Of a DNA stretch of 64,000 nt, positions 2,386-39,369 are shown piece after piece. Both the position numbers and the translations under genes were made by a program. The stretch is from an uncultured archaeon (GTDB lineage: Archaea > Thermoproteota > Nitrososphaeria > Nitrososphaerales > Gagatemarchaeaceae), in assembly GCA_963817525.1 (NCBI GenBank), contig CAWFOU010000001.1, positions 128,001-192,000 of the forward strand. Direction: 5' to 3'. Positions within the stretch are counted from its first letter, which is position 1. Each line of letters starts with the position of its first letter. The notes under the pieces are model-generated. The model was not told where the DNA came from and ran no database searches. It saw only the letters and a list, made by a program, of their open reading frames with translations.

Positions 2386-3588
2386 ATGGCCACCAAGAGG
2401 CGGGGCTCGAAGAAGGGCGACGCCGCCGGGAGGTTCGGGGCATTCGGAGGGCAGTTCGTCCCCGAGACGCTCGTCCCCGCGGTCCAGGAGCTTGAGCGCG
2501 CCTACCTCTCCGCGCGAAAGGACAAGGCCTTCGAGGCGGAACTCCGGCGCCTCCTTCACGAGTTCGCGGGGAGGCCCACCCCCGTCTACTTCGCGGCCAA
2601 CCTCACGGCCCACGCCGGCGGCGCCAAGATCTTCCTCAAGCGCGAGGACCTCCTCCACGGGGGCGCGCACAAGATCAACAACACCATCGGGCAGGCCCTC
2701 CTCGCGAAGAGGATGGGGAAGAGGCGGATAATCGCGGAGACTGGGGCGGGGCAGCACGGGGTCGCCACCGCGATGGCCTGCGCCGCCCTGGGCCTGAAGG
2801 GCGAGGTCTACATGGGCACCGAGGACATCGAGAGGCAGAAGCTCAACGTCTTCAGGATGAGGCTCCTTGGCGCCGAGGTCCATCCCGTGGACAGCGGCTC
2901 GCGCACCCTCAAGGACGCCATCAACGAGGCCCTGAGAGACTGGGTCACCAACGTGAAGACGACCTACTACCTCCTCGGCTCGGCGGTCGGCCCCCACCCG
3001 TACCCGACGATGGTGAGGGACTTCCAGAGCGTAATAGGCCTGGAGGTCAAGGCCGACTTCAAGAGGATGGGCCGCCTGCCAGACACGGTGGTCGCCTGCG
3101 TGGGCGGGGGGAGCAACGCGATCGGGAGCTTCCACGCCTTCGCTCGCGACAAGGGGGTCAAGCTCTATGGGGTCGAGGCGGGCGGGACGGGGCCTGGGAG
3201 AAACGCCGCGCCCCTGGTCGAGGGGAGGAAGGGCGTCCTGCACGGGATGCTCACCTACGTCCTCCAGGACGAGAACGGGCAGGTGAGGAGCACCGAGAGC
3301 ATCTCCGCAGGGCTAGACTACCCTGGAGTGGGTCCCGAGCACTCCTACCTCAAGGACAGCGGGCGGGCCACCTACGTCACGGTCTCCGACGACGAGGCAG
3401 TCGAGGCGTTCCACCTCACCGCGCAGAAGGAGGGGATAATCCCCGCCCTCGAGTCGGCCCACGCGGTGGCCTACGCGCTCAAGCTCGCGAAGCAGATGAG
3501 GAATGGGCAGTCGATCGTGGTCACGCTCTCCGGGAGGGGGGACAAGGACGTCCAGACCATAGCGAAGAAGGCCGGAATAGAGCTATGA
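2386..3588 (+). CDS. trpB: Tryptophan synthase beta chain (TrpB1 type)
   Basis: Motifs [15 protein letters not shown] (PLP lysine), [16 protein letters not shown] and [15 protein letters not shown]. Confidence 0.98.
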
Positions 3589-4394
3589 GCCCGATATCCG
3601 GGGTCTTCCAGAGGCTCCACAGGGAGGGCGCCCTCATCGCCTACGTCATGGGCGGCGACCCAGACCCGAGCACGTCGGGCTCGGTGATCGACGCCGTCGT
3701 GAGGGGCGGGGCCGACATCGTCGAAGTGGGGATACCCTTCTCCGACCCGATCGCCGACGGCAAGTCCATCCAGGCGGCCGACGTCCGCTCGCTGGCGGCG
3801 GGCACCACGCCGGCCCAGGTGCTGGAGCTCATCGCCGCGGCCAAGGCCAGGAACCCGCGCGTCCCCATCGTAGCCATGACGTACTACAACATCCTCTTCT
3901 CCAACGGCCTCGAGAAGTTCCTCTCCGCCGCGAAGGGACACGGGGTCGACGGCCTCATCGTCCCCGACCTCCCATTCGACGAGATCGAGGAGTACGCCCC
4001 CCTCGCGAAGCGCTACGGGCTCGACGCCGTCCTGCTCGCCGCCCCCACCACCGCGCCCTCGCGGATGAAGGCGATAGCAGCGCACACCTCGGGCTTCCTC
4101 TACCTCGTCTCGCTCACGGGGGTCACCGGGGCGAGGGCCGACGTCCAGCAGAGCACCGTCGGGCTCATCCAGTCGGCAAAGAGCAACGCCAAGGGAGTGC
4201 CCATAGGCGTGGGGTTCGGGATATCGACTCCCGACCACGTGAGGTCGGTCCTCTCCGCGGGCGCGGACGCCGCAGTGGTGGGCAGCGCGATCGTGGACAG
4301 GGTGGCGCGTTACCAGAAGGACGGCGCCGCCGTGATGCTAGCGAACGTCGAGAGCTACGTCCGGTCCCTCAAAGACGCGACCAGGCGCGCCTAG
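3585..4394 (+). CDS. trpA: Tryptophan synthase alpha chain
   Basis: Motifs [17 protein letters not shown] and GFGIS. Confidence 0.98.
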
Positions 4395-5251
4395 GCTCCC
4401 TTCTCGGCCGCGCTGTAGATCTCCCTTATCACCGCGCCCCCTCTCTTGTCTGTCTTGTATCTCTTCGCTAGCTTCGAGAAGTGCCTGTCGAAGGCCCTCC
4501 TGTCAGAGGCCTCTATCATCGAGAGCACGCTCTTCAGCTCCCGCGAGGCCGCGCGAGCGACCTCCTTCGAGTAGGGGTTGCCCGCCTGGATGGCGAACGA
4601 GAGCCTCGCGTCCTGGGCGAGCACGGCCTCCGCAAGGGTCAGCTGCATCGAGGAGTTGGGAGTGGAGACACGCATGAACTCCTCCGGTGTGAGGAATCGC
4701 GACGCCGTCCCCGCGTAGACGACGTTGAGGATGTGCGTCAGCGAGAGGACGACGGCCATAGACCTGTCGTGCTCGCTGAGGCTCATCGGTATGATCCTCG
4801 CCTCCGGGAAGAGCCTCGCGGCGAGGGATGCCTCCGGGCCGTCCGCCCCGCCTTTGCCTACTATCACCGCGACCTTCATCCCCCTGGTGGACTCGAGGGC
4901 GGGGCCGAAGAGGGGGTGGATGGAGAGGAGGCTCACCCTCTTGCCGACGAGCTTCTTCAGCGCCGGGAGGGTCTGGGTCTTCACCGAGGATATCTCGACC
5001 AGCGTCGATCCGGGCCTCAGCTTGCCGACGAGCTCCTTCGCGACCTTCACCGTGTCGTCTATGGGGACCGCGATGACGGTGACGTCGCACCCCTTCACGG
5101 CCTCCGCGTTCGTCCGAACGGCAACGACGCCGGGGATAGCGACCCTTCCTTCGCTCGAGTCCGAGCCCCTGACCTCGTCGCCCCTCTCGAGGAAGTAGCG
5201 CGCGAAGAACGAGCCCATCCCGCCCGAAGCGCCGATGACGGAGACCTTCAA
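4391..5251 (-). CDS. tyrA: Prephenate/arogenate dehydrogenase
   Basis: Rossmann motif VSVIGASGGMG plus EISSVK, HPLFGP and EHDRSMA; TTG start at 5251 overlaps the upstream TGA. The longer ORF-track N-terminus is an out-of-frame overlap with the upstream gene. Confidence 0.92.
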   Translation of the reverse strand: MKVSVIGASGGMGSFFARYFLERGDEVRGSDSSEGRVAIPGVVAVRTNAEAVKGCDVTVIAVPIDDTVKVAKELVGKLRPGSTLVEISSVKTQTLPALKKLVGKRVSLLSIHPLFGPALESTRGMKVAVIVGKGGADGPEASLAARLFPEARIIPMSLSEHDRSMAVVLSLTHILNVVYAGTASRFLTPEEFMRVSTPNSSMQLTLAEAVLAQDARLSFAIQAGNPYSKEVARAASRELKSVLSMIEASDRRAFDRHFSKLAKRYKTDKRGGAVIREIYSAAEKGA

Positions 5252-6672
5252 CTCAGCAGTTCGCCTATCTTGCTGACCCCCGCGGTCAGGACATCCTGGG
5301 GCTGGCCCAGCGATATCCTGAAGCACCTTGGATAGTCGCCGAACCCGGTCCCGGGGCTGATGGTCACGCCCTTCTTCTCGAGGAGCTCCATCGCGAAGGC
5401 CGTGGAGTCGAAGGCCGGGTCCTTTGCCTGTGGCCAGGCGTAGATCGCCCCCTCGGGCTCTAGAAGCTCGAGGGCGTCTATCTTCTTCAGCTCGGCGCTG
5501 GTCGCGTCGATGCGCTCCTTCATCACCTTGGAGTTGTGCGAGACCTCCGCCTGGCACTCGAGCGCCTTCGCCGCCCCCCTCTGGATGAAGTCGGGGACGC
5601 AGGTGATCATGAGCCCGAGGACCTTCAGCATCCTGGAGCTGGTCTCGGCGGGGGCGAACGAGTAGCCCACCCTGAACCCGGTCATGCTCCACGCCTTTGA
5701 GAACGACGAGGTGAGGATGTACTTCCTCGGGAGGCTTTCGAAGATGGTCGGGCACGGCTTGTAGGAGTAGTCGTTGTAGATCTCGTCGCTTATCACCGTG
5801 AGGCCATAGTCGTCCGCGATCCCGACCATCTCCTTGAACGCTGCCTTGCCCATTATCTTCCCGGTCGGGTTCGAGGGGTAGCTGAGTATGAGCGCCTTTG
5901 TGTTCGGCCTGATCGCGGCCTTCACCCTCTCCGGGGAGGGCTCCCACCCCTCCTCGAGGGTGGTGTGGACCGTGATGGGCCTCGCGCCGATGTACTCAAT
6001 GCCCTCCTTGTACGCGGGCCAGTTCGGCTCTATCACGACCACACTGTCTCCCTCGGAGGCCACCGTGGCGAGCGCAGAGTACACCGCGAACCTCCCGCCC
6101 GGCGTGACGATGAGCTGGTTCTCGGTGGCGTCGCCGTAGCCGTAACGCCTCGCGAAGTAGGCCTTGAGCGCCGTGAGGAGCTCGGGGATGCCCCTCCCCA
6201 CCGTATAGTAGGTCTTGTACGCGTAAAGCGCCTCGGAGACGGCGTCGAGCACGGCTTTGGGCGGGTGGAAGTCGGGCTCGCCGACGTCCAGCCTCAAGAG
6301 CTTCTTCCCGCTCTTCTCTATCTCGGTCGCCTTGGCCATCATCACCATCGGGGTGATGAGCTGCTTGGGCTTCGCGGTCCCCTGCATCCGCTGGACCTTC
6401 TTGGACTCTGTGAGGAGGGTCCCCAGGATCTTGGTCCCGAGCTGCTGGTCGAGCCCGAGCGTCTTACACTCGCGGAGCACTTCCTCGAGGAGCGCGTCCT
6501 CCACGGCCTCGTTGTCTATCGGGATAGACTCCTTGCTCTTGACCTGCCCTATCTTCTTCGCCAGCTCTATCCTCTTCGCGACGAGCTTGATTATCTCCTC
6601 CGTGGTCGCAGCTACCTCTTCGCGCAGTTCCTGGAGCTCCGAGCCCTTTTGCTCCATGTCGCTGCTCGTCAT
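5248..6672 (-). CDS. Chorismate mutase (AroQ) / class I-II PLP aminotransferase fusion
   Basis: N-terminal ~95 aa AroQ-like (LQELREEV...KRIELAKKIGQVK...ESKKVQ); C-terminal aminotransferase motifs GEPDF, PSNPTG, SDEIY and SFSKAWSMTGFRVG. Confidence 0.9.
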   Translation of the reverse strand: MTSSDMEQKGSELQELREEVAATTEEIIKLVAKRIELAKKIGQVKSKESIPIDNEAVEDALLEEVLRECKTLGLDQQLGTKILGTLLTESKKVQRMQGTAKPKQLITPMVMMAKATEIEKSGKKLLRLDVGEPDFHPPKAVLDAVSEALYAYKTYYTVGRGIPELLTALKAYFARRYGYGDATENQLIVTPGGRFAVYSALATVASEGDSVVVIEPNWPAYKEGIEYIGARPITVHTTLEEGWEPSPERVKAAIRPNTKALILSYPSNPTGKIMGKAAFKEMVGIADDYGLTVISDEIYNDYSYKPCPTIFESLPRKYILTSSFSKAWSMTGFRVGYSFAPAETSSRMLKVLGLMITCVPDFIQRGAAKALECQAEVSHNSKVMKERIDATSAELKKIDALELLEPEGAIYAWPQAKDPAFDSTAFAMELLEKKGVTISPGTGFGDYPRCFRISLGQPQDVLTAGVSKIGELLS

Positions 6673-6673
6673 C

Positions 6674-7783
6674 TCACTTTCCCTTTCCCAGGACGGGGGA
6701 GATAAACCCAGCCCTGAGCGCGTGGTCAGCGAGAACGATGGCCGTGCAGCACTCGACTATGGGCACCGCGCGTGGTACCACCACTGGGTCGTGCCTCCCT
6801 GGGACGACCAGCTCCACCTGCTTCTTGGTGGAGAGGTCCACGGTCTTCTGCTTCTTGGCTATCGAGGCGGGCGGCTTGAACGCCAGCCGGTATACCAGGG
6901 GCATCCCGCTTGAGACCCCGCCGATTATCCCCCCCGAGTTGTTGGTGTCGGTGGTGATCTTCCCCTTCTTGTCTATGGAGTACTGGTCGTTGTTCTCGCT
7001 CCCCTTCAGCCTCGCGGAGGCGAAACCCGAGCCGAACTCGACACCCTTCACCGCAGGGATTGAGAGGGCCATCTGCGCGAGGTCGGAGTCAAGCGAGTTG
7101 AAGACGGGCTCGCCCAGCCCGACTGGAAGGTTCAGCGCGACGCACTCAACTATCCCCCCGAGGCTGTCGCCCTCACCCCTGCTCTTGATGACCATCTGCT
7201 TCATCCTCTCGGCGAGCTTGGGGTCGGGACTCCTGACCTCGTTCAAGTACCTGTTCTTCCTTGCGTCGTCCAGGCTGAACCCCTCCGCCCTGAGCCCCCC
7301 CAGTTCCAGCGTGTACGCGATTATCTCGACGCCGAGCGTCTCCTTGAGGAGCTTCTTGGCGACCGCCCCCGCCATCACGAACCCTGCCGTCACCCTCGCC
7401 GACGCCCTGCCGCTGCCGCGGTAGTCGTTGTACCCGCCGTACTTGGTCCTGTGGGTGAGGTCGGCGTGGCTCGGCCGCGGAGTGTTCACCATGGCCTCGT
7501 AAGAGCGCGAGTCGACGTCAAGGTTGCGTATCATCATCGTCACGGGCGCCCCCGTGGTGAGCCCGTTGAAGACCCCGGACATTATCTCGACCACGTCGCC
7601 CTCCTTCCTCTGCGTGGTGACTATGGACTGGCCTGGCCGCCTCAGGTCGAGGTCGGGCTGGATGTCCGCCTCGGAGAGGGCTAGCCCCGCGGGGACTCCG
7701 TCCACCACGGTGCCGACCCCCTTGCCGTGGCTCTCGCCGAAGCTCACCACGACGAACCTCTCACCGTAGATGTTTCCCGGCAT
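6674..7783 (-). CDS. aroC: Chorismate synthase
   Basis: Motifs FGESHG, RRPGQS, PRPSHAD, GRASAR.T and GRHDP; ATG at 7783. Confidence 0.97.
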   Translation of the reverse strand: MPGNIYGERFVVVSFGESHGKGVGTVVDGVPAGLALSEADIQPDLDLRRPGQSIVTTQRKEGDVVEIMSGVFNGLTTGAPVTMMIRNLDVDSRSYEAMVNTPRPSHADLTHRTKYGGYNDYRGSGRASARVTAGFVMAGAVAKKLLKETLGVEIIAYTLELGGLRAEGFSLDDARKNRYLNEVRSPDPKLAERMKQMVIKSRGEGDSLGGIVECVALNLPVGLGEPVFNSLDSDLAQMALSIPAVKGVEFGSGFASARLKGSENNDQYSIDKKGKITTDTNNSGGIIGGVSSGMPLVYRLAFKPPASIAKKQKTVDLSTKKQVELVVPGRHDPVVVPRAVPIVECCTAIVLADHALRAGFISPVLGKGK

Positions 7784-7791
7784 CTCTCTCA

Positions 7792-9114
7792 CTACTCGCT
7801 CTTGACCTTCGCCCCTAGCCTCTTGATGTCCTCGAGGAAGGTGGGGTACGAGACGTCGAGGCTGTCCGCGCCCACGATGGGGGTCCCCCCGGGGATCAGC
7901 ATCGAGGCGAGGGAGAAGGCCATGAACATCCTGTGGTCGTCGTGTGCGTCGAGGAGGGCGGCCTCCAGCCTCCCCTTCTGGGGGAGTATCCTCAGGCCGT
8001 CGTCCCTCTCCTTGACGTTGACCCCCAGCTTCGAGAGCTCCTTCGCGACTATCGCTATCCTGTCGGTCTCCTTGAACCTGGCGTGGGCCGTCCCCACGAC
8101 CTCTACCGGCGAGTCGCACCTGAGCGCGAGGGCCGCCACCACAGGGAGCAGGTCGGGGGTGTCCCCGAGGTCGAAGGTCCCCCCGCGGAGCCTGTCCCCG
8201 TCGGAGGCCACCACGAGCGCGCCCTTCTCCTCGGTGACCTTCGCCCCCATGGCCTCCACTATCTCGGTGATGCGGGCATCCCCCTGGGGCAGGCTCGCGT
8301 CCAGGTTCTCGACCTTCACCCGGCCGCCCAGCATCGCGACCGCCGCCACGATGAACGAGGCAGAGCTAAAGTCCGCAGGCACGTCAAAGTCCGCCGCCTT
8401 GTACTCCTGCCCCGACTCGACCACGAACTCAGAGTATCCCTTGTTGCGCACCTTCACCCCGAAGCGCTGGCCGAGCCTCAGGGTCATCTCGATGTAGGGC
8501 CTCGAGACCGCGTCGGCGACCTTCAGCGTGGTGTCGGCCCCCGCCATCGGCGTCGATATCAGCAAGGAGGAGACGAACTGGGAGGAGACGTCCCCGCGGA
8601 TCGCGGCCCTGCCGCCTTTCATCCCGCCCGTCTTCACTATCACCGGGGCGCACCCGTTCCCCCTTGAGCTCCAGGCGCTCACCCCGAGCTGCCCCAGCGC
8701 GTCCAGCAGCGGCTGCATGGGCCTCCTCTTAATGCTGGTGTCGCCCGTCAGCAGGGCGTACCCCTCGGGCGCGAGCGAGAGCGCCGAGGTCATGAACCTC
8801 AGGGTCGTCCCCGAGTTCTCGACGTTCACCACGTCGTCAGGGACCTTTGGCCTCGTCCCCTTGATCGTCAGGACGCCCTCCTGCCTCTCCATCTCCGCCC
8901 CCATCGCGGCGCAGGCGTCAACCGTTGCGTTCGTGTCCCGGGAGAGGAGGGGGTTGCGTATCTTCGAGCCCCCGCGCCCTCCGGCGACTGCGAGGCTCGC
9001 CATGAGGACCGCCCTGTGGGTGTAGCTCTTGCTCGGCGGGACCGAGACGCTCCCGGTCAGAGGGCCAGATGCCAGGACGCGCGTCGCCCCGTGGACGCTC
9101 GCGCTCTTAGCCAA
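7792..9114 (-). CDS. aroA: 3-phosphoshikimate 1-carboxyvinyltransferase (EPSP synthase)
   Basis: Motifs PPSKSYTHR, NSGTTLRF, VSSQF, KETDR and DHRM. Confidence 0.97.
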   Translation of the reverse strand: MAKSASVHGATRVLASGPLTGSVSVPPSKSYTHRAVLMASLAVAGGRGGSKIRNPLLSRDTNATVDACAAMGAEMERQEGVLTIKGTRPKVPDDVVNVENSGTTLRFMTSALSLAPEGYALLTGDTSIKRRPMQPLLDALGQLGVSAWSSRGNGCAPVIVKTGGMKGGRAAIRGDVSSQFVSSLLISTPMAGADTTLKVADAVSRPYIEMTLRLGQRFGVKVRNKGYSEFVVESGQEYKAADFDVPADFSSASFIVAAVAMLGGRVKVENLDASLPQGDARITEIVEAMGAKVTEEKGALVVASDGDRLRGGTFDLGDTPDLLPVVAALALRCDSPVEVVGTAHARFKETDRIAIVAKELSKLGVNVKERDDGLRILPQKGRLEAALLDAHDDHRMFMAFSLASMLIPGGTPIVGADSLDVSYPTFLEDIKRLGAKVKSE

Positions 9115-9997
9115 CGCTGAGGAGCCTCCCGTGCTCGTTGTTGGTCTCCGTCTCTATCACGCTGCTCCCGTCCTCCGCCCACGCCTTGGCCAACGCATCC
9201 ATCTCCGCCGCCTTCGAGGGGTCGAAGACGGCCGCGACGGCGGGACCGGTCCCGGAGAGCCCTGCCCCCAAAGCCCCGTGTTCCACGGCGAGTAGCGCTG
9301 GGAACGGGTCGTATTTGAGGATGGACGAATAGGTCATGCCGTTCAGGACCATCGCCCTCCAGTAGTCTCCCACTAGGCTCATCTCAAAGAAGAGGTTGGT
9401 CAGGCTCCCGAACTTCCTGACGAACTTGGGGTCGGCCATCTCCCTCCTGCTGCGCCCCTTCGGGACCACGATCAAGACCTTGAGCTTCTTGTCGAAGAGC
9501 CTCGAGCTCACAATCTTCCTTCCGAGGTTGTCGGTCATGTTGAGGCCCCCGAGGAGGCACCCCGCCGCGTCGTCGAGGGCGCCAGTCACGCTCGCCCCGC
9601 TCGAGAGGGAGGCCTGCACGCTGCAGTCAAGGACCTTCTTCGGGTCGAAGGCCTTCTGGCCCAGCGCCGCGTAGGTTGCGAGGGCGATCGACGTGGAGGC
9701 GGCCGAGGACGTCTTGAGCCCCACCCCTATTGGGACGCTGGAGCTGGTCTGCACCCTCCCCGAGTACGCGTCCGGGTCCTTTCCCGCGCTCTTGATGGCC
9801 TGCCGGATGGTCTCGACCGCCAGCCTCGACCCTGACTTTTTGCCGTTGACCACCACCTCCCACGCGCCGCTCGCCGCTTCCAGCTCCACCTCTGCCTCGG
9901 TGGAGAGCCTGACGCTTGCCGTCGCCCCCTTGCCCCCCGCGATCGCGTTGACTATACTGATGGCCCCGAAGGTCATGGCCTTCGCCTTTGTGCTCAT
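9107..9997 (-). CDS. aroK: Archaeal (GHMP-family) shikimate kinase
   Basis: Motifs GAISIVNAIA.GKG, P.GVGLKTSSA, SVTGALDD and GLSGTGP; ATG at 9997. Confidence 0.93.
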   Translation of the reverse strand: MSTKAKAMTFGAISIVNAIAGGKGATASVRLSTEAEVELEAASGAWEVVVNGKKSGSRLAVETIRQAIKSAGKDPDAYSGRVQTSSSVPIGVGLKTSSAASTSIALATYAALGQKAFDPKKVLDCSVQASLSSGASVTGALDDAAGCLLGGLNMTDNLGRKIVSSRLFDKKLKVLIVVPKGRSRREMADPKFVRKFGSLTNLFFEMSLVGDYWRAMVLNGMTYSSILKYDPFPALLAVEHGALGAGLSGTGPAVAAVFDPSKAAEMDALAKAWAEDGSSVIETETNNEHGRLLSVG

Positions 9998-10860
9998 TTG
10001 GTGGCCTTGCGCCTCCTCGTCTTCTCCACTGCCCGCTCGGGAGACCCCGCCAGCGCCTTCCTCATTACCTTCTCGGGGGCTTCCCTCCCCGTCCAGAGCC
10101 TGAACGCGGCCATCCCCTGGTGCAGGAGCATCTCCTCTCCGTGTATCGCCTTCGCCCCGACGCGCACGGCCTCCACGAGGAGGCTCGTCTCCCTGGGGCG
10201 GTAGACGGCGTCGAACACCACCTTGGTCCCGGGCAGGATCCTCTTCAGCTCTCTCGGGAGCGGCTCCCCGGACGCCCCCATCGGGGAGGCGTTGAACACG
10301 AGGTCGTGGTTGAGGTGGCGCAGGTCCCTCATCGAGGCCAGCGTGAGGTTCATCCTGGGGAACGCCATCTCCATCTCGAGCACGAAGCGCCTGGCGCGCC
10401 CCACGCTCCGGACGGCGACAGCGACGTCCAGGCACCCGATCCTGTTCATGGCCTCGCAGAAGGCGCGCGCGGCCCCTCCCGCCCCTACGAGCATGGCGTT
10501 CCTGATGTCAAGGGTGACGGGCTCAGCCCTGAGCGGCTCGACTATCCCGTCGGGGTCGGTGTTGTGCCCGACGTATCTCCCTCCCTCTTCCTTCACTGTG
10601 TTCACCGCCTGGACCCTGGTCGCCACCGCGTCTAGCGCGTCCAGCAGCGGGATCACCGCGCTCTTGTACGGGATGGTCACGTTCATCCCCTTGAAACCCT
10701 CCGTTTTCAGCCGCTCGAACTCGCTTGCGAACGCCGCCTCCGGGGCGCTCACCCGGGTGTACTCCGCCTCGATCCCTAGGTAGCGGAACGCGGCGTTCAT
10801 CGCGGCAGGCGAGGGGGAGTGCGAGACGTCTCTCCCGACCACGCAGTATCTGTCCTTCAT
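9994..10860 (-). CDS. aroE: Shikimate dehydrogenase
   Basis: Motifs HSPSP, G.NVTIPYK, AVNT, NTD and GAGGAARA. Confidence 0.95.
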   Translation of the reverse strand: MKDRYCVVGRDVSHSPSPAAMNAAFRYLGIEAEYTRVSAPEAAFASEFERLKTEGFKGMNVTIPYKSAVIPLLDALDAVATRVQAVNTVKEEGGRYVGHNTDPDGIVEPLRAEPVTLDIRNAMLVGAGGAARAFCEAMNRIGCLDVAVAVRSVGRARRFVLEMEMAFPRMNLTLASMRDLRHLNHDLVFNASPMGASGEPLPRELKRILPGTKVVFDAVYRPRETSLLVEAVRVGAKAIHGEEMLLHQGMAAFRLWTGREAPEKVMRKALAGSPERAVEKTRRRKATK

Positions 10861-10864
10861 CCTC

Positions 10865-11566
10865 TCAGACGACCAGGCTCCGGAGCTTCCTCATCGTGGA
10901 GACTGAGACCTGCCCCGGGGCCACCGCCTCGTCCGGGAGTGAGGCGTAGACGAGCGGGGCGCCCAGGCGCATCGCGACGACCCGCGAGACCGTCCCGAGC
11001 TCTCCCATGCAGAACGATATCGTCTTGCGCGGCTTGTCGGCGCAGAGCGCGAGGGTGGCAAGGTTGTCGTCCGCGCTCCTGGCCGTGGTGACCACCTTTG
11101 CAAGGGAGCCCACGCCCAGCTCGGCCTCGCGTGTCGCCCTGAGGGCCTTGAGGTCGGGGGTCCCTTCATAATCGTGCCACGAGGCAATCACCTCCACGCC
11201 CTTCGGGAGCGAGGCCGCCCACTTCTTGTTCCCCTTCAGAGTGCTGAGCTCGACGTCCAGGTAGGCGGGCCCCATCTCGCCTAGGCGGGACACGAGCTCA
11301 AGGCGGCGCGGCTCGCTCCCCTTGAACCAGCCCCCCTCCGTGGCAGACCTCACGGTGAAGACGGCACTCTTCGCGAAGACCGAAAGTTCCGCCTCGAGCT
11401 CGCGCGGGTTGAGGCCCCTCGTCAGCCTGTCGACCCTGAACTCTACTAGGTCAGACCCGAGCGACAAGGCGAGCTCCGCCTTTGCGGCCAGCTCTTCCGG
11501 GGACTCGGCGCTCACTGAGGTGCAGACACGGGGCGACGCGCTCCTCTTTGCCAACTCAGGGGTCAC
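10865..11566 (-). CDS. aroD: Type I 3-dehydroquinate dehydratase
   Basis: Motifs VEFRVD, TVRSATEGG, SWHDY, FCMGELG.SR and APGQ. Confidence 0.93.
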   Translation of the reverse strand: MTPELAKRSASPRVCTSVSAESPEELAAKAELALSLGSDLVEFRVDRLTRGLNPRELEAELSVFAKSAVFTVRSATEGGWFKGSEPRRLELVSRLGEMGPAYLDVELSTLKGNKKWAASLPKGVEVIASWHDYEGTPDLKALRATREAELGVGSLAKVVTTARSADDNLATLALCADKPRKTISFCMGELGTVSRVVAMRLGAPLVYASLPDEAVAPGQVSVSTMRKLRSLVV

Positions 11567-11593
11567 CGCCCCGCCCGCGCTTTCCCCGCGGGG

Positions 11594-12616
11594 TCAGCGC
11601 TCGACAATGAACTCGTCGACCTCACCGCCGAAGTGCCTCCCCCTGGCGGCTCCCGCGACGTGCACCAGGACCTCGTCGCCCGCCTTGGCCTCGGTGACGG
11701 CAAGCGGGCTCCCGTCGGGGCGAACCAGCCTGATGGTCTCGGCGTTCTGGAGCATCGCGGTGCCCTCGTGGCCGCCCACCTCCGCCTCTACCATCACAAG
11801 CGGCCTCCTCTCCATCTTTATCCTCCCGACTATGGCGTCCCGCCTTGCGCCCGTCTTGTCCACCAGCTGCACCTTGTCGCCGCTTCGCAGCTCGGAGAGG
11901 TACCTCGTCTTCCCGTCCACCCCGAGGATGTAGCTGTGGAGGGCCCCGGCGTTTACCCTGAAGGGCCGCGTCGGGATGTACTCCGTGGGGATGGTCTCGC
12001 TGTGCACGAGGAAGAAGAAGCTAGCGACGCTCCCGATCAGCATGCCCTCTCCGAGCCCCAGCTGGGACGCCGTGTCTATGCACACCCTCTCCCCGTCACC
12101 CACGTCGACGATCCGCCTGATCTTCGCCTTCACGAGCTGGACGCCGCGCCCCTGCCCGGAGGTCAGGCTGGCGAGGAGCCCCTTCGAGGCCTTGAGGGAA
12201 GAGTAGGGGATGACGACCCCGTCGACGCCCTTCTCGAGGATGGAGAACGCGAGCTTGATGTCGGCCTCAGACTTCATGAAAGCGTAGATCTTCCTGTGCC
12301 TGCGCCGGAACTCCCCGATGAGGTTCTCGAGCGGTATTATCTTCCAGTTGGTGCAGTCCACGACCACGAACTTGTGGTCCTTCTTGAGGGCCGACTCTAC
12401 CGCCCGGTCCAGGTCCTTCGCGCCCCTTACCTCGACCCACGCAAAGTCCCCGTCCCTCTCGAGGTATTCGTGGATGCCTTCGCCCCCCTCGAGCCTCTTC
12501 GCCTCCCCGCGGCTGAGCACCGCCGCGACCCCCGCCTGCCTGGCCTCCTTCAGCGCCTTTGCGATGTCGGCGATGTCCGTGACGTCGAGGACTATCTCCT
12601 TCTCAGGCGTTGGCAG
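11594..12616 (-). CDS. aroB': 3-dehydroquinate synthase II (archaeal alternative pathway)
   Basis: Motifs WKIIPLENLI, GERVCIDT, RPFRVNAGA.H, LQNAETI and GRHFG; frame open up to a CTG at 12616 with an in-frame TGA two codons upstream (start uncertain). Confidence 0.92.
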   Translation of the reverse strand: MPTPEKEIVLDVTDIADIAKALKEARQAGVAAVLSRGEAKRLEGGEGIHEYLERDGDFAWVEVRGAKDLDRAVESALKKDHKFVVVDCTNWKIIPLENLIGEFRRRHRKIYAFMKSEADIKLAFSILEKGVDGVVIPYSSLKASKGLLASLTSGQGRGVQLVKAKIRRIVDVGDGERVCIDTASQLGLGEGMLIGSVASFFFLVHSETIPTEYIPTRPFRVNAGALHSYILGVDGKTRYLSELRSGDKVQLVDKTGARRDAIVGRIKMERRPLVMVEAEVGGHEGTAMLQNAETIRLVRPDGSPLAVTEAKAGDEVLVHVAGAARGRHFGGEVDEFIVER

Positions 12617-13397
12617 CCTTCATTACCCCCATCGCCTCTTTGACGCTGCCCCCCTCTATCACCACGCGCCTCAGCGCCTTCACTATCGACGTCGGGTCGC
12701 GGTGCTGGAAGACGTTCCGGCCGAAGGTCACCCCCATCGCCCCCGCCTGCATGACGTCGTACGCGAGCTTGAGTATCTCTCCGTCCGAGTCGACCTTCGC
12801 CCCGCCGGCGAGGACCAGCGGGACCGGGCACTTCCTCACCACCTCCCTGAAGCTCTCCGGGTCGCCAGTGTACACGGTCTTGACGATGTCCGCCCCGCTC
12901 TCAGCCCCTACGCGCGCGACGTGCGCTACGACTTCGGGGTCTGACGGGTCCTTGATGTTCTCTCCCCTCGGGTACATCATGGCGACGAACGGGACCTGGT
13001 ACTCGTCGCACTGGTCCGCGACCATCCCTAGCTGCACTAGCATCTCGGGCTCCTCCTTGGACCCCATGTTTACGTGGATGGAGATGGCGTCCGCGCCCAG
13101 CCTCAGCCCCTCCGCCACCGAGGAGTTGATCACCTTCCGGTTGGGGGCGGGGCCGATGTTCGTGCTGGCCGAGATGTGCATTATCATCCCGATCGGGGCG
13201 GGCTCCTTGAGGGACTTGATTATACCCTTTTGGACCAAGAAAGCGGTCGCCCCTCCCTTCGAGACCTTCGCGACCATCGCTTCGGGGTTCTCGAGCCCGG
13301 CTATGGGCCCTATCGTGAAGGAGTGGTCCATGGGGATGCAGAGCATCCTCCCGCCCTTGGTTATCCTTGCGAGCCTCACCTGCTTTCCGTTCACCAT
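12603..13397 (-). CDS. aroA': 2-amino-3,7-dideoxy-D-threo-hept-6-ulosonate (ADH) synthase, DhnA-type class I aldolase
   Basis: Motifs PMDH, MMYPRG, GADIVKTVYTG and GRNVFQ; adjacent to DHQ synthase II. Confidence 0.92.
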   Translation of the reverse strand: MVNGKQVRLARITKGGRMLCIPMDHSFTIGPIAGLENPEAMVAKVSKGGATAFLVQKGIIKSLKEPAPIGMIMHISASTNIGPAPNRKVINSSVAEGLRLGADAISIHVNMGSKEEPEMLVQLGMVADQCDEYQVPFVAMMYPRGENIKDPSDPEVVAHVARVGAESGADIVKTVYTGDPESFREVVRKCPVPLVLAGGAKVDSDGEILKLAYDVMQAGAMGVTFGRNVFQHRDPTSIVKALRRVVIEGGSVKEAMGVMKAANA

Positions 13398-13405
13398 CTA
13401 GCCCA

Positions 13406-14476
13406 CTACTCCAGGTACCCTTCCTTCTCCATCAGCTCGGCCGTGAGTATGGCGTCCCCCGCCGCCCCTCTTATTGTGTTGTGCGAGAGCAACGTGAGCT
13501 GCAGGGACTTTGCGTCGATCCCGCTCCTGACCCGCCCCACCACCACGCTCATCCCGGGGACGCTCCCCGCCATCCTGTCTAGGCGGGGCTGCGGCCTGTC
13601 GTTCTCCTTCATGACCATGATGGGCTGGCTGGGCGCCGTGGGGAGCTTGAGCGTCTGAGGCGTCCCCCTGAACCTTTCGAGAGACCTCTCGGCCTCCTTC
13701 GGGTCGACCTCCCGGGAGAACTCCGCGTACAGCGTCTCCATGTGCCCGTCTATCACCGCCACCCGGTTGCAAGAGATCCCCATTGTGATCGGGCTGGGCT
13801 TGATCGCCCCTGCCGAGAGCGTCCCGAGGATCTTCCTGGCCTCGGCCGCCACCTTCTCCTCCTCGTTCTTGATGTAGGGGATGACGTTCTCCTGGATCGA
13901 GAGCGAAGGCACGCCGGGGAACCCAGCCCCCGAGAGGGCCTGCATGGTGGTGACTATCGCCTTGCGCGCCCCGTACTCGTCGATGAGCGGCTTCAGCACC
14001 ATCGCGAGGCCGGTGACCGTGCAGTTCGGGGTCGTCGCGATGGCCCCCTTCCATCCCCTCTTCCTCTTCTGGCCCTCGAGGAGCTCCAGGTGCTCCGGGT
14101 TGATCTCGGGTATCATTAGGGGCACGTCAGCGTCCATGCGGTGCGCGCTCGCCTCGCTCACGACCGTGAACCCAGCCTCCGCGAACTTTGTCTCTACCTC
14201 GTCCGCGACCTCAGAGGGGAGCGCGGAGAAGACGATGTCGCACCCCTTCGCGGACTCGGGCTTGGCCTTCTTGACGACCTTCTCCGCCATCGCAGGGTCG
14301 ATTACGTCGGGGAAGAGCCAGTGCACTGCGTCCCCGTACCTCTTCCCGGCGGACTCGCCTCCCATCAGGACCTCGAGGCGGAGGTATGGGTGCGTTGGGA
14401 GCATGTTGATGTAGCGCTGCCCTACCGCGCCGGTCGCTCCGAGCAGGGCGACCTTGACCTCGCGGTGCTTGCTCAT
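13406..14476 (-). CDS. asd: Aspartate-semialdehyde dehydrogenase (archaeal type)
   Basis: Motifs LLGATGAVGQ, PNC, QALSGAG, CNRV...DGH and HNTIRGAAG. Confidence 0.96.
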   Translation of the reverse strand: MSKHREVKVALLGATGAVGQRYINMLPTHPYLRLEVLMGGESAGKRYGDAVHWLFPDVIDPAMAEKVVKKAKPESAKGCDIVFSALPSEVADEVETKFAEAGFTVVSEASAHRMDADVPLMIPEINPEHLELLEGQKRKRGWKGAIATTPNCTVTGLAMVLKPLIDEYGARKAIVTTMQALSGAGFPGVPSLSIQENVIPYIKNEEEKVAAEARKILGTLSAGAIKPSPITMGISCNRVAVIDGHMETLYAEFSREVDPKEAERSLERFRGTPQTLKLPTAPSQPIMVMKENDRPQPRLDRMAGSVPGMSVVVGRVRSGIDAKSLQLTLLSHNTIRGAAGDAILTAELMEKEGYLE

Positions 14477-14477
14477 C

Positions 14478-15701
14478 CTATAATGCCCCTCCCTTCATCG
14501 CCTCCTTCACGAGGATGAAGGCCTTCTGCGAGCTCTCCTTGGACACGAACACCCTGACGGACGATAGTATCGTCACTATGCCGTAGACGTTGATAGACGC
14601 CTTGGCCAGCGGACCAGTGATCCTCTGGACTACCCCACGCTCCGTCTCGAGGGCCGCGCCCTTCACGGTGATCATCGAGAGGCTCGGGAACTCGGAGACG
14701 GCCTTGCCTATCTTGTCCTCGACGAGGACCTTGTGGACCGCGTCTAGGACGTTCTTCCCTCCGCCCACGTAGAAGATCGCCGCGTTGTTCTCCAGCGAGA
14801 GGGCGAGCAGGTCGCCGTGGGCGTCCCTCACGGCCTTCACCGCGCGGATGATCGCCCCCGTCTTCTCGGGGTTCAGGCCGACGAAAGTTATCATCGACAC
14901 CCCCTCGCCCAGCATCTCGACCTGGACCGGCGAGAGCTCCCCCTTGATGACCGTGCCGGAGTCGAGCCTTTCTAGGTTGGTGACCCTGATCCTCAGGCCT
15001 GACGACTGGTATCTTAGCGCCTTTACGTGGAGGAACTTCGCTCCGCCCGCCGCGAGCATCTCGGCCTCCTCCCCGTTGAGGCTCTCGATGAACTGGGGGT
15101 TGGTGACCTTGTCTGGGTCGCTCGAGTAGACGCCCTCTACGTCCTTCACCAGTATCACCTCCTTCGCGTTCAGGCAGTTGCCGAGCAACACCGCGGTGGT
15201 GTCGCTCCCTCCCCTGCCCAGCGTCGTCGTCCTCCCGCTCGTGGTCTTCCCGAGGAACCCGCAGACCACCGGGACCTTCCCCGCCCTCAGGAGCGGGGTG
15301 ATGAGCTGTTGGGCCTTGGCCCTGCTCTCCTCCACGAGCGGGTTGGCGTCCAGGTGCCTCTCGTCGGTGATGACAGGCCAGTACGGGGTGTCCGGGTCGA
15401 CTATCACCGATTGCAGCCCGAAGGCGGCGAGGGCGGCTGCGACCATCCTCGCGCTGGTCTTCTCCCCGGAGGAAAGGAGCTCGTCGAGGAGGTGGGGCTC
15501 GATCTCCGGGTTCTGCTTCTTGGAGAGCGCCATTATCTGGTCGGTGACGCCCTTGAGGGCCGAGACCACGACCACCACTCCCAGCCCCTTCGCCTTGGTC
15601 TCTTTGATGAGGGAGGCCACTTGGTTGATGGCCTTCTCGTCCTCTAGGACGGACCCCCCGAACTTGACTACGACAGTCTCTAACATCTTAGTTGTGCTCA
15701 T
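14478..15701 (-). CDS. lysC: Aspartate kinase with C-terminal ACT domains
   Basis: Motifs VVKFGGS, VVSAL.GVTD and TTLGRGGSDTTA. Confidence 0.93.
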   Translation of the reverse strand: MSTTKMLETVVVKFGGSVLEDEKAINQVASLIKETKAKGLGVVVVVSALKGVTDQIMALSKKQNPEIEPHLLDELLSSGEKTSARMVAAALAAFGLQSVIVDPDTPYWPVITDERHLDANPLVEESRAKAQQLITPLLRAGKVPVVCGFLGKTTSGRTTTLGRGGSDTTAVLLGNCLNAKEVILVKDVEGVYSSDPDKVTNPQFIESLNGEEAEMLAAGGAKFLHVKALRYQSSGLRIRVTNLERLDSGTVIKGELSPVQVEMLGEGVSMITFVGLNPEKTGAIIRAVKAVRDAHGDLLALSLENNAAIFYVGGGKNVLDAVHKVLVEDKIGKAVSEFPSLSMITVKGAALETERGVVQRITGPLAKASINVYGIVTILSSVRVFVSKESSQKAFILVKEAMKGGAL

Positions 15702-15709
15702 GGTGCAAG

Positions 15710-15764
15710 GCGCTCCGGCTGATTTTCGCTTGGGAAGCTAGAGCGCGAGTTAGTAGCGAAAACC
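15710..15764 (-). promoter_or_regulatory. Candidate attenuator: two overlapping, mutually exclusive RNA stems
   Basis: Minus strand. Stem A: GGUUUUCGCU (15764-15755) pairs with AGCGAAAAUC (15730-15721). Stem B: GCGCUCUaGCU (15746-15736) pairs with AGCcGGAGCGC (15720-15710) and covers a GGAG 11 nt before the lysC ATG. Confidence 0.55.
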
Positions 15765-15824
15765 GAAGATGGGCTTCCGATAGCTGAGCTGCGGATAAAG
15801 TGAACCGCCTCGATGAAGCTCCAT
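15750..15824 (-). CDS. Putative Tyr/Phe-rich leader peptide MELHRGGSLYPQLSYRKPIFGFRY (24 aa)
   Basis: ATG about 30 nt downstream of a TATA-like box; 3 Tyr and 2 Phe in the last 15 codons; lies directly upstream of the Phe/Tyr/chorismate operon; too short for the ORF track. Confidence 0.6.
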   Translation of the reverse strand: MELHRGGSLYPQLSYRKPIFGFRY

Positions 15825-15854
15825 CTTTTCTCGCCAAAAGCGTTCCGCAATCGA

Positions 15855-15862
15855 TATTTATG
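15855..15862 (-). promoter_or_regulatory. TATA-like box (CATAAATA) for the leader/lysC operon
   Basis: AT-rich box in a GC-rich context, with purine-rich upstream sequence and appropriate distance to the leader ATG. Confidence 0.55.
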
Positions 15863-16045
15863 CGTTATCCTGCACAGATTCACCTTCTCCCATCCTTGCG
15901 CACGAGTCGAAATCCCGTCGTTGCGGGATTCTGTATCATAATCTGGGCTGGCCGCTACAAATTTTCAGTATTGTGTTGCTAACATATTAAATAGTGGAGG
16001 TCAGAAGAGAGAAAACACCTTACGGTCTAGGTGGTATTTGGTCTA

Positions 16046-17608
16046 ATGGTTACCTCGGTTATCTTCTCCCCAGTCGCTGACATAATCCTCGGGGTCTCGG
16101 TCCTGCTCAGCTTCTCCTTCTTCATCTACGGCATAAACACCCTGCACCTCACCCGGAAAGCCCGTGGTTACACTCAGCCCAGTCAGGCAGGGATGACGTC
16201 CAGGCCGGCGGTGGCGGTGCACCTCCCCGTCTACAACGAGTTCTACGTCGCCGACAGGCTTCTCAACGCCTGCGCGAAGATGGCCGACAACTACGGCAAG
16301 GGGCTAGTGAGGGTCTGCGTCATCGACGACTCTGACGACGAGACCCGTGACAAGCTGGACGCCCTGAAAGACAGTTACGTCCAGCAGGGCTACAACGTGG
16401 AGATACTTCGGAGGGGGACGAGAGCGGGATACAAGGCCGGGGCACTGCAGGCCGCCCTCGAGAGGACGACCGAGCCCTTCGTCGCGGTATTCGACGCGGA
16501 CTTCGCCCCCAATGAGGACTTCCTCGACAAGACCGTCCCCTTCATGCTCCAGGACGAGAAGGTGGGTTTCGTCCAGTGCAGATGGACCCACTTCGACAGG
16601 ACCTACAACATGATCACGGAGACCCTCGCGATAGGGATCGACGCGCACTTCCTCCTCGAGCAGCCCGGCCGCTGGAGCAGCGGCTACATGATGAACTTCA
16701 ACGGCAGCGCTGGCCTCCTGCGCACGGCCGCGATAAGAGGCGCTGGCGGCTGGAACTCGGACACCCTGGCCGAGGACCTGGACCTGAGCTACCGCATGCA
16801 GCTCTCGGGCTACAAACCGGTCTACCTCAAGGACGTCAAGGTCCCGGCGGAGCTCCCTCCGACGATCACGAGCCTCAAGAGGCAACAGGGGCGCTGGGCG
16901 AGGGGCTCCATCCAGACGGCGCGCAAGGTCTGGCCGACGGTCTACGCCTCGAAGAAACTCTCCATCAAGCAGAAGTTCGAGGCATTCGTCCACCTCACCT
17001 ACTACATGGTCCACCCGTTGATGGTCTTCTCCTTCGTTCTCGCCCTGCTCGCGGTCTTCCTCAACGTGAACGTCATCAACTACGGCGTCCACGTCACCCT
17101 CCCCAACCCGGGGGCCCTATTCGGCGCCTCGGCGCTTGTGACTCTCGAGATAGTCCCATGGGCGGTCTTCACCCTGATGATAGTCCTCTCCACCCTCGCC
17201 GTGCTATACTACTGCATCGAGGCGGTGAGGACCCAGCACCTCGGGCTCTTCAGGAACGTGAAGCAGATCATTCTCCTCGTGATCTTGGGCTACGGGATCA
17301 GTGTCAGCAACTCGGTGAGCGCCATGTCGGGCCTCCTCTCCCACCAGACCGGGGTTTTCCTCAGGACTCCCAAGTACGCCATCACCGGCAGCGCGGGGAC
17401 CTGGAGGGAGAAGAAGTACCAACTCGCCCTCAACCGCGTGACGGTTTTCGAGACGGTCGCTACGGTCGTCGGGATCATTGCCCTCGTCTACGCCGCGGCC
17501 GAGCACAACTTTGGGATCATCCCGATCCTGGTCGTCTACGTGACGGGCTACCTCGCGGTGCTCTTCTTGACCCTCTCGCAGTCGGTCTCGAAGCAGCGCG
17601 GCAACTGA
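16046..17608 (+). CDS. Cellulose-synthase-like processive GT2 glycosyltransferase
   Basis: Motifs DDS.D, GYKAGAL, FDADF, AEDLDL and QQGRW (QxxRW); N- and C-terminal TM helices; GTG at 16031 is an alternative start. Confidence 0.9.
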   Translation: MVTSVIFSPVADIILGVSVLLSFSFFIYGINTLHLTRKARGYTQPSQAGMTSRPAVAVHLPVYNEFYVADRLLNACAKMADNYGKGLVRVCVIDDSDDETRDKLDALKDSYVQQGYNVEILRRGTRAGYKAGALQAALERTTEPFVAVFDADFAPNEDFLDKTVPFMLQDEKVGFVQCRWTHFDRTYNMITETLAIGIDAHFLLEQPGRWSSGYMMNFNGSAGLLRTAAIRGAGGWNSDTLAEDLDLSYRMQLSGYKPVYLKDVKVPAELPPTITSLKRQQGRWARGSIQTARKVWPTVYASKKLSIKQKFEAFVHLTYYMVHPLMVFSFVLALLAVFLNVNVINYGVHVTLPNPGALFGASALVTLEIVPWAVFTLMIVLSTLAVLYYCIEAVRTQHLGLFRNVKQIILLVILGYGISVSNSVSAMSGLLSHQTGVFLRTPKYAITGSAGTWREKKYQLALNRVTVFETVATVVGIIALVYAAAEHNFGIIPILVVYVTGYLAVLFLTLSQSVSKQRGN

Positions 17609-39206: not shown

Positions 39207-39295
39207 TGCGGGAGTTGCGCACCGCACCTTAGGTTCAAATCCCAACGGGTTGTGCCGATTTCTGACCGTCTCATGTGATTAGTATGCGGGGGGTG
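39207..39295. repeat. Cassette boundary repeat C: 78-bp cargo-less unit abutting the tRNA 3' end
   Basis: Contains both arm motifs seen at A and B, joined at AGGTTCAAATC. Confidence 0.88.
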
Positions 39296-39369
39296 GGATT
39301 CGAACCCACGAACCCCTAAGGGATGGGGTCCTAAGCCCCACGCCGTTGACCAGGCTTGGCGACCCCCGC
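39285..39369 (-). tRNA. tRNA-Leu(TAG), no encoded CCA
   Basis: GCGGGGG/CCCCCGC-A acceptor stem, D-loop CCTGG, anticodon arm TGGGG-CTTAGGA-CCCCA, long variable arm and GGTTCGAATCC T-arm; upstream BRE/TATA at ~39397-39410. Confidence 0.97.

Follow-up and report, generated by a model that had tools for sequence, protein, structure and literature searches.

A 24-codon open reading frame (ORF) ahead of lysC, the aspartokinase paralogue that heads an eleven-gene aromatic amino-acid operon, is probably a translated leader in an uncultured archaeon of the family Gagatemarchaeaceae. The locus lies on the minus strand of a 64,000-nucleotide (nt) stretch of assembly GCA_963817525.1 (contig CAWFOU010000001.1, positions 128,001 to 192,000), which is referred to here as the window and whose own positions serve as coordinates throughout. 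Judged from its sequence, this ORF would act in cis as a sensor of charged Tyr- and Phe-tRNA within a ribosome-mediated attenuator. In the window, the predicted output is most likely occlusion of the lysC Shine-Dalgarno (SD) sequence, as modelled folding suggests. An attenuator at this site had been proposed in an earlier reading of the window (the original prediction), whose TATA-like box at 15855-15862 was found 1 nt away at 15861-15854 and whose other coordinates all agree to within 1 nt.

On balance, this leader appears to be one member of an old class of Tyr/Phe-sensing leader attenuators found across the Thermoproteota, each placed before a lysC-headed operon of the 6-deoxy-5-ketofructose 1-phosphate (DKFP) type. 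It would be the first ribosome-mediated attenuation described in Archaea. Within the class, the output hairpin would come in at least two forms, one that holds the SD and one that does not, and one order would carry an embedded 16-nt RNA or DNA signal that points to a second layer of control.

Leader ORF in the Window

The leader ORF ends 48 nt before the lysC ATG (15701) and contains three Tyr codons (10, 15, and 24), two Phe codons (20 and 22), and no Trp codon, as originally described. Four of these aromatic residues fall within the last 10 codons, a count that was matched by 1 of 200 shuffles. Two Tyr codons lie outside the presumed sensing block, at 15797-15795 and 15782-15780. The 3′ end of the TATA-like box precedes the leader start codon by ~29-31 nt, and relatives in the genus and the family keep a box of the form CATAAATA[TA] at this spacing; the family members also share the start context GCGAGAA..[ATG/TTG]. 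In archaea, transcription starts at a customary spacing from the TATA box, and this spacing was used to place the expected start zone.

The leader locus gave no Rfam match at the gathering score and none at E ≤ 10 within 15600-16050, hence it matches no curated leader, riboswitch, or T-box family. A sigma-70-type promoter scan, whose model is unsuited to archaea, gave 0 hits. A 61-codon GTG ORF in another frame (15698-15883, minus strand) spans the whole leader and ends in ATGA at the lysC start; it is probably spurious because it has no start codon 3′ of the presumed transcript start.

Conservation of the Leader ORF in the Family and Order

The case for the leader depends on its conservation in relatives, because the window alone is only partly beyond chance. 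The family set consists of the regions upstream of the lysC paralogue from 38 of 97 genomes (E ≤ 1e-60). The genomes of this set and of the phylum set described below are mostly metagenome-assembled and the relatives are non-independent; independent lineages are fewer than loci, yet at least 12 unrelated C-terminal sequences are represented. In all but one genus of the family, the layout is a CATAAATA-type box, ~30 nt, a start codon, a 16-24-codon ORF, a stop codon, and lysC. The leader starts with ATG in the sub-clade of the window and with TTG elsewhere in the family, with the frame and the stop position kept. Its stop codon lies 36-51 nt before lysC in most family loci, with exceptions at 19 nt (L040), 57 nt (L089, L093, and L094 of genus g69), and 78 nt (L018).

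Aromatic content was measured as the sum of Phe, Tyr, and Trp residues over the final 10 codons of any short ORF and was compared with dinucleotide-preserving shuffles. This count was reached by ≤1% of shuffles (p ≤ 0.01) in 33 of 37 family-level loci; of the remaining four, three belong to genus g69 and one is a locus at which an upstream in-frame GTG misled the ORF picker. Over 68 order-level loci, the mean count is 3.43 on the forward strand, compared with 1.43 on the reverse strand and 1.47 in shuffles. The last aromatic codon is within three codons of the stop in 36 of 37 significant order-level loci, a figure biased by the definition of the statistic on the last 10 codons.

The family ORFs end in FGFRY, FGFSF, FGFYYF, CGFWF, VYGYSW, FGFFGYSW, YYGYYASYSW, or SYSYWVSYYY. 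In genera g20 and g22, nucleotide likeness to the window is lost in the first half of the ORF (no hit to the 16-nt motif described below), and both genera retain an equally long ORF that is rich in Tyr, Trp, and Phe at its end, such as MKEAATRGITAYHWPVYGYSW and MVSIANRLYLSYSYWVSYYY, in which the initial TTG is written M. Relatives carry an [FY]-G-[FY] motif with third-position and F/Y changes. Specifically, differences within the G-Y-S-W and F-G-F blocks are either third-position changes (GGC/GGG, TAT/TAC, AGC/AGT, TTC/TTT) or F/Y swaps (TTC/TAC, TTT/TAT), which fits selection on codons and not on RNA sequence.

Recurrence and Residue Specificity Across the Phylum

The phylum set was built from 401 sampled genomes, 75 of which contain this lysC type (E ≤ 1e-70), and 72 upstream regions were taken. 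A short ORF with at least five aromatic residues per 10-codon window is present at 46 of these 72 loci, compared with 3 of 72 on the reverse strand. On average, the aromatic window holds 5.65 such residues on the forward strand, 2.12 on the reverse strand, and 2.61 in shuffles, and 38 of the 72 loci reach p ≤ 0.01. Examples of phylum ORF ends are ..NPYYYYYYYCFF, ..FGFFYGFYFYFYFGP, and ..SFDYYFYYYYFT. The last aromatic codon lies within three codons of the stop in 43 of 44 significant phylum-level loci. The original prediction had named the retention of Tyr and Phe codons by a short ORF in relatives as its check beforehand, and the family counts (33/37) and phylum counts (46/72) both bear it out.

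Loci that lack the ORF include a genus in which lysC is not beside the 3-dehydroquinate (DHQ) synthase II gene (e.g., G231 and G245); among the matches listed, the two genes are adjacent in carriers such as G421, G282, G275, G266, G238, and G324. Across 140 non-redundant loci, the residues most enriched over shuffles are Tyr (+1.47), Phe (+0.76), and Gly (+0.35), and residues with A/T-rich codons are not enriched (Ile -0.23, Leu -0.24, Lys -0.06, Asn +0.06). Because Ile, Leu, Lys, and Asn do not share in it, the Tyr/Phe bias does not result from AT-rich promoter DNA. It suits an operon whose last genes belong to the Tyr branch.

In one phylum-level locus (L112), the leader ends in seven consecutive Tyr codons followed by C-F-F, and directly after its stop codon are a 14-bp hairpin and then TTTTTGTTTT, an arrangement that is terminator-like.

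Hairpin After the Stop Codon

Two mutually exclusive stems can form around the end of the window leader, at the positions originally described and with the GGAG inside stem B. Stem A consists of 10 pairs, one of which is G-U, and 10 of 11 positions are paired in stem B. Counted from the leader stop, stem B begins 3 nt downstream, and its loop encloses the right arm of stem A. The spacer between the leader stop and the lysC start is moderately structured in the window (z -1.94; 2 of 100 shuffles as stable). Within the sub-clade of the window (10 sequences), stem A is kept in 91% of cells and stem B in 96%, and stem A is seen only in this sub-clade.

Across the family, the SD-containing hairpin has arms that differ by genus: GCUCUAG/CUGGAGC and, as equivalents of stem B in other genera, CUUCCAG/CUGGAGG, CUCUCCAA/UUGGAGGG, CCUCAG/CUGAGG, and GCCUCC/GGAGGC. 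Their left arms begin between 2 nt before and 6 nt after the stop codon (sub-clade g1A; genera g20, g2, and g67). The SD-containing helix scores 17 in the family compared with 13.2 in shuffles, and 12 of 35 loci are at p ≤ 0.05; this excess is not shared by sub-clade g1B or genera g22, g66, and g69.

At the phylum level, the most stable spacer hairpin begins between 3 nt before and 8 nt after the stop codon in 42 of 43 loci, a geometry that short spacers partly force. These hairpins have a median stability of -17.7 kcal/mol, and the spacers are more stable than their shuffles (mean z -2.74; 32 of 44 with ≤5 of 100 shuffles as stable). In a group of 17 sequences, all nine pairs of a GCCCAG..CUGGGC hairpin are kept in every sequence, with compensatory changes at two pairs. 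The SD is within the hairpin in 17 of the 43 loci.

A Nucleotide-Conserved Block Within the ORF

Codons 5-10 of the window leader contain a 16-nt block that is conserved as nucleotides. The motif AGGCG[AG]T-NNN-NTTTA[TC] is found 5′ of lysC in 46 of the 55 loci at the order level, with lysC proteins only 43-52% identical, and the third codon positions of the block are invariant across the order. In the host genome, the block is single-copy (28.9 bits, with the runner-up site at 20.0), and it is composed of rare codons (CGA 0.08, GGT 0.08, TCA 0.07, CTT 0.09, TAT 0.18; usage product ~3e-6). A second-best genomic match (G000 C1:413907, 17.3 bits) was dropped because no gene follows it. In most families, a start codon lies 1-5 codons 5′ of the block, sometimes after a strong SD-like GGTGGAGG, and the peptide reads M-R-G-D-x-L-Y.

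A trans-acting regulator could instead bind this block (15810-15795) on DNA or RNA, with the surrounding ORF being incidental, and this explanation is improbable. The invariant third positions and rare codons would suit such a site, as would four loci of family f11 in which the variable triplet of the block is TGA or TAA in frame with no start codon nearby. The block also falls at ~+2 to +24 of the transcript as presumed, a region from which a repressor could act in archaea. However, two of these f11 loci with an in-frame stop (L029 and L051) carry a separate upstream ORF (uORF) that ends in CFFFNFYY or RYFFFNFYY and stops 1 nt before the lysC SD, and genera g20 and g22 lack the block yet keep the ORF and its aromatic end. 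Tyr/Phe enrichment also extends across the phylum, where most such loci have no block. By TrpY/Tar-type operator criteria, neither dyad symmetry in the block nor repeated regulon sites in the 2.82-Mb genome were found, and the single genomic copy likewise argues against a regulator site.

No common structure around the block was found in minimum-free-energy folds of 46 leaders, and the best pairing partner of the block is the lysC initiation region in only 16 of 45. The block may serve as an initiation context or be bound, as DNA or RNA, by a protein, and a regulator site could exist alongside the leader peptide. The block does not displace the leader-peptide reading. In three loci of phylum family f51 (L104, L105, and L136), a 10-codon uORF (MRG[DG]CVY..) that contains the nucleotide block stops exactly where the lysC frame begins, and lysC has no visible ATG, GTG, or TTG start at that point.

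The conserved N-terminal R-G-[GD]-x-[LV]-Y motif, together with the fact that short conserved ORFs can encode functional micro-proteins, raises the idea that the ORF encodes a trans-acting small peptide (a micro-protein or the precursor of a modified peptide). This idea and that of a chance ORF are together very improbable. Outside the two blocks, all codon positions vary freely and ORF length ranges from ~9 to ~28 codons, neither of which suits a functional peptide; what the ORFs share is Tyr/Phe richness, a fixed place before one operon, and an adjacent hairpin. The comparisons with shuffles and with the reverse strand exclude a chance ORF.

Predicted Mechanism and Its Output

The translated leader remains the favored explanation, and since the Tyr/Phe cluster is at the end of the ORF and the first hairpin arm follows directly at the stop codon, the time a ribosome spends on these codons would govern hairpin formation, which is the logic by which ribosome-mediated attenuation is defined. 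The window leader was folded from its presumed 5′ end with the ribosome footprint masked and the A site set at selected positions. For the free leader, the probability (P) is 0.27 for stem A, 0.70 for stem B, and 0.10 for an unpaired SD, and the resting state is therefore predicted to be "off". When the A site is at Tyr15, P is 0.67-0.75 for stem A, 0.00-0.08 for stem B, and 0.03-0.52 for an unpaired SD; at Phe20, the values are 0.00, 0.96, and 0.01, respectively. At Tyr24 or the stop codon, both stems are at 0.00 and the SD is unpaired at 0.15-0.24, with stem B gone because the ribosome covers its left arm. Ribosome-masked folding of 14 leaders together with that of the window gave modest, model-dependent shifts.

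In this model, a pause early in the leader (Tyr15) or at its very end could expose the SD, a pause at Phe20-22 could not, and stem B would form after ribosome release. The original prediction had held that stalling at the upstream Tyr codons would leave stem A intact and that a ribosome at the stop codon would let stem B form. In the folding model, stem A does form at Tyr15, and the statement on the stop codon is not borne out, since stem B is absent there.

Under the favored mechanism, transcription would begin a few bases 5′ of the leader ATG, and a ribosome would translate the leader at a speed that, over the Tyr and Phe codons at its end, sets whether the RNA behind the stop codon folds. 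In free RNA, stem B would prevail and hide the lysC SD, and lysC and the ten aromatic-pathway genes behind it would be poorly expressed. When Tyr- or Phe-tRNA is scarce, the ribosome would linger, either covering the left arm of stem B from the last codons or permitting stem A from near Tyr15. The SD would then be exposed for longer and the operon would be on, a direction of response and a choice of decisive pause site that we infer.

Several results weigh against this interpretation. The fold of the 143-nt leader is ordinary (z -0.74; 42 of 200 shuffles as stable), as is that of its 73-nt part (z -0.53), and in sub-clade g1B and genera g22, g66, and g69 the spacer is no more structured than shuffles. 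Covariation within the sub-clade of the window is weak: the compensatory changes that the original prediction expected in both stems amount to one pair in stem A, which was equaled in 105 of 500 shuffles, and none in stem B. Modelled opening of the SD is modest, never exceeds 0.52, and depends on the footprint, and a pause at Phe20 or Phe22 favors the stem that occludes the SD. The SD pairing probability is 0.93 compared with 0.83 in shuffles, in a test of low power, and the spacer from the SD to the start codon is long (11 nt). Changes in the variable codons do not favor the third position (of 23 sites at each position, 8, 8, and 10 vary); such even variation is what would follow if nothing but the frame and the regulatory codons were important. 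Part of the ORF serves a non-coding role, because the 16-nt block is conserved as nucleotides and contains in-frame stops elsewhere. Finally, 26 of the 43 phylum-level hairpins do not contain the SD and end ~5 nt before it, and SD occlusion therefore cannot be the general output.

These 26 hairpins would also suit a possible, though clearly less likely, arrangement in which the leader senses as proposed and the output is transcriptional: RNA polymerase would terminate or be released before or inside lysC, depending on whether a ribosome is held at the leader end or is absent, through oligo-U or aCPSF1/FttA-type polarity, and SD occlusion would be secondary. Consistent with this, a U-run of at least four follows the hairpin in 6 of 43 loci, L112 has its 14-bp stem and TTTTTGTTTT, and the loops of the GCCCAG..CUGGGC hairpins often carry U4-U6. 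Control of eleven genes from a single point would moreover be easier at the level of RNA synthesis. In the window, however, there is no U-run between the leader stop and lysC (15749 to 15702) and no hairpin with a U-run of the intrinsic-terminator type; the sole terminator-like match on the leader strand is within the leader ORF (15819-15807). This fits the preference of the original prediction, based on the missing U-tract, for translational control over an intrinsic terminator. The SD is inside the hairpin in both the window and the family, and the simplest coupling models would give the wrong sign for a biosynthetic operon. An excerpt of a 2021 paper (PMC8448881) also states that no transcription attenuation was known in archaea at that time. 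Where the hairpin does not include the SD or is trailed by a T-run, the usual output of the lineage may be transcriptional or based on polarity.

Operon, Genome, and Host

The host belongs to the genus of Candidatus Gagatemarchaeum, and the Gagatemarchaeaceae are non-ammonia-oxidising Group I.1c Thaumarchaeota, in keeping with the Nitrososphaerota affiliation originally proposed. Its genome is 2.82 Mb with 60.7% G+C. The features of the leader and its operon are collected in Table 1.

Table 1. Positions of the leader, its stems, and the operon in the window.
Feature	Positions	Strand	Basis and remarks
TATA-like box ATAAATAT	15854-15861	-	Sequence; presumed promoter of the leader transcript
Expected transcription-start zone	15829-15833	-	Placed by usual archaeal TATA-start spacing; 5′ untranslated region of ~5-9 nt
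Leader ORF, 24 codons plus stop, MELHRGGSLYPQLSYRKPIFGFRY	15750-15824	-	ATG at 15824, TAA at 15752-15750
16-nt block AGGCGGTTCACTTTAT, codons 5-10 (RGGSLY)	15795-15810	-	Conserved as nucleotides
C-terminal block ATC TTC GGT TTT CGC TAC (I F G F R Y)	15753-15770	-	Presumed sensing codons
Stem A, left arm GGTTTTCGCT (last leader codons)	15755-15764	-	Pairs with 15730-15721
Stem A, right arm AGCGAAAATC	15721-15730	-	Pairing with 15764-15755
Stem B, left arm GCGCTCTAGCT	15736-15746	-	Pairs with 15720-15710
Stem B, right arm AGCCGGAGCGC	15710-15720	-	Pairing; holds the lysC SD, GGAG (15716-15713)
lysC paralogue (aspartokinase, AA_kinase + ACT), first operon gene	14478-15701	-	Pfam
Other ten operon genes	4391-14476	-	ORFs and Pfam

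The ten genes after lysC are, in order, asd, a DeoC-type aldolase (of the 2-amino-3,7-dideoxy-D-threo-hept-6-ulosonate, or ADH, synthase type), DHQ synthase II, aroD, aroE, a GHMP-type shikimate kinase, 5-enolpyruvylshikimate-3-phosphate (EPSP) synthase, chorismate synthase, a fusion of chorismate mutase (CM_2) and an aminotransferase, and prephenate dehydrogenase (tyrA). This eleven-gene string is an archaeal DKFP-type aromatic operon, and Pfam agrees with the original reading of its last genes. The archaeal DKFP route consumes aspartate semialdehyde, which explains a dedicated lysC/asd pair at the operon head. A second aspartokinase-like gene is located elsewhere in the genome (G000 C1:598204-599181, 32% identity), and the lysC at the operon head therefore looks like a dedicated paralogue that feeds aspartate semialdehyde to the DKFP route. 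Among 57 order-level loci, 56 have the aldolase gene 3′ of this lysC type on the same strand, with asd between them in 36.

Aro-type lysC (E ≤ 1e-60) is present in 9 of 55 genomes of sister genus g20 compared with 21 of 22 of the genus of the window, which suggests a patchy distribution of the operon head, or of the pathway, among members of the family. In the ammonia-oxidiser-type family f12 of the same order, DHQ synthase II is found in 56 of 56 genomes and aro-type lysC in 0 of 56. Six ammonia-oxidiser-type genomes of the same order (L168-L173) contain aroA'-aroB' and no aro-type lysC, and no aromatic short ORF was found beside aroA' in these six. A striking ORF in the ammonia-oxidiser-type set, MNSHNSYPWWYYFFYFNQ, was set aside because it has no gene behind it.

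A trpEGDCFBA string (window 2386-4394, plus strand, and upstream; G000 C1:125783-132391) converges on the end of the aromatic operon, and no Trp-rich leader was found ahead of trpE or the trp operon in the host genome. Just 5′ of the trpE TATA-like box is a TGTACA at G000 C1:~125739, ~2.3 kb before the start of the window. In sister genera, TGTACA-N6-9-TGCAC occurs 5′ of the lysC TATA box (L031, L034, L086-L088, L091, and L092). A TGTACA box is the type of site used by TrpY; these sites resemble its "TRP box" and may represent a protein operator alongside the leader. A crude genome-wide scan for other ORFs that follow an AT-rich box and are rich in one amino acid gave 71 hits, and none of the six inspected was a convincing leader. 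The only Rfam match in the window is a tRNA gene at 39285-39369 on the minus strand.

Significance and Relation to Known Systems

If the leader works as proposed, ribosome-sensed amino-acid control exists in archaea despite their eukaryote-like transcription machinery, and it is widespread, given 46 of 72 sampled phylum loci. It would also provide a defined, mutable system in which SD occlusion, initiation on leaderless or short-leader mRNAs, and the coupling of transcription to translation could be studied in archaea. ORFs of ~9 to 28 codons are expected to fall below the usual length cut-offs of gene calling.

Leader-peptide attenuation is a textbook bacterial mechanism. Full-text literature searches, which excluded subscription journals and supplements, returned no precedent for an archaeal leader-peptide attenuator. 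The excerpt of PMC8448881 cited above reports no archaeal transcription attenuation as of 2021, and in the accessible part of a Methanosarcina Ribo-seq paper, short ORFs in 5′ untranslated regions are mentioned only as possible uORFs.

The archaeal leader resembles the pheA/pheL, trp, and his leaders of bacteria in several respects: a short ORF is directly 5′ of a biosynthetic operon, codons for the end product are clustered near its end, the other residues of the peptide vary, and the helices after the ORF are predicted to depend on ribosome position. Unlike these leaders, it is found in an archaeal host, starts within a few bases of its presumed 5′ end, and would rely mainly on Tyr, with Phe and sometimes Trp as further regulatory residues. 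The window also lacks the terminator of a hairpin plus U-run and any Rfam leader match. To our knowledge, archaeal polymerase does not use bacterial-type intrinsic terminators.

In translational attenuation of the ermC, cat, and cmlA type, a ribosome stalled within the leader ORF opens a hairpin that hides the SD. The window is similar to the ermC/cat type in that its SD is in a hairpin whose opposite arm is within reach of a ribosome at the leader end. The cause of stalling differs: an antibiotic and a specific nascent peptide act in ermC, cat, and cmlA, whereas the archaeal leader would presumably stall at repeated codons for which charged tRNA is scarce.

A working bacterial precedent for the mechanism is provided by the leaderless poly-Cys short ORFs of mycobacteria, as far as the available portion of Canestrari et al. 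(bioRxiv 10.1101/834739) describes them. Like the archaeal leader, they are ORFs at the 5′ end of a polycistronic mRNA and are rich in the amino acid of the downstream pathway. That system is bacterial, Cys-responsive, and experimentally tested, whereas the archaeal leader responds, by prediction, to Tyr and Phe and is known from sequence alone. The archaeal ORF additionally holds a nucleotide-conserved block, unlike the poly-Cys ORFs as presented in that portion.

Archaea are otherwise known to control aromatic amino-acid genes through DNA-binding repressors that act at promoters, namely TrpY in Methanothermobacter and Tar in Thermococcus. Unlike TrpY and Tar, the element described here consists of a putatively translated ORF and RNA structure, and not of a protein bound to a promoter.

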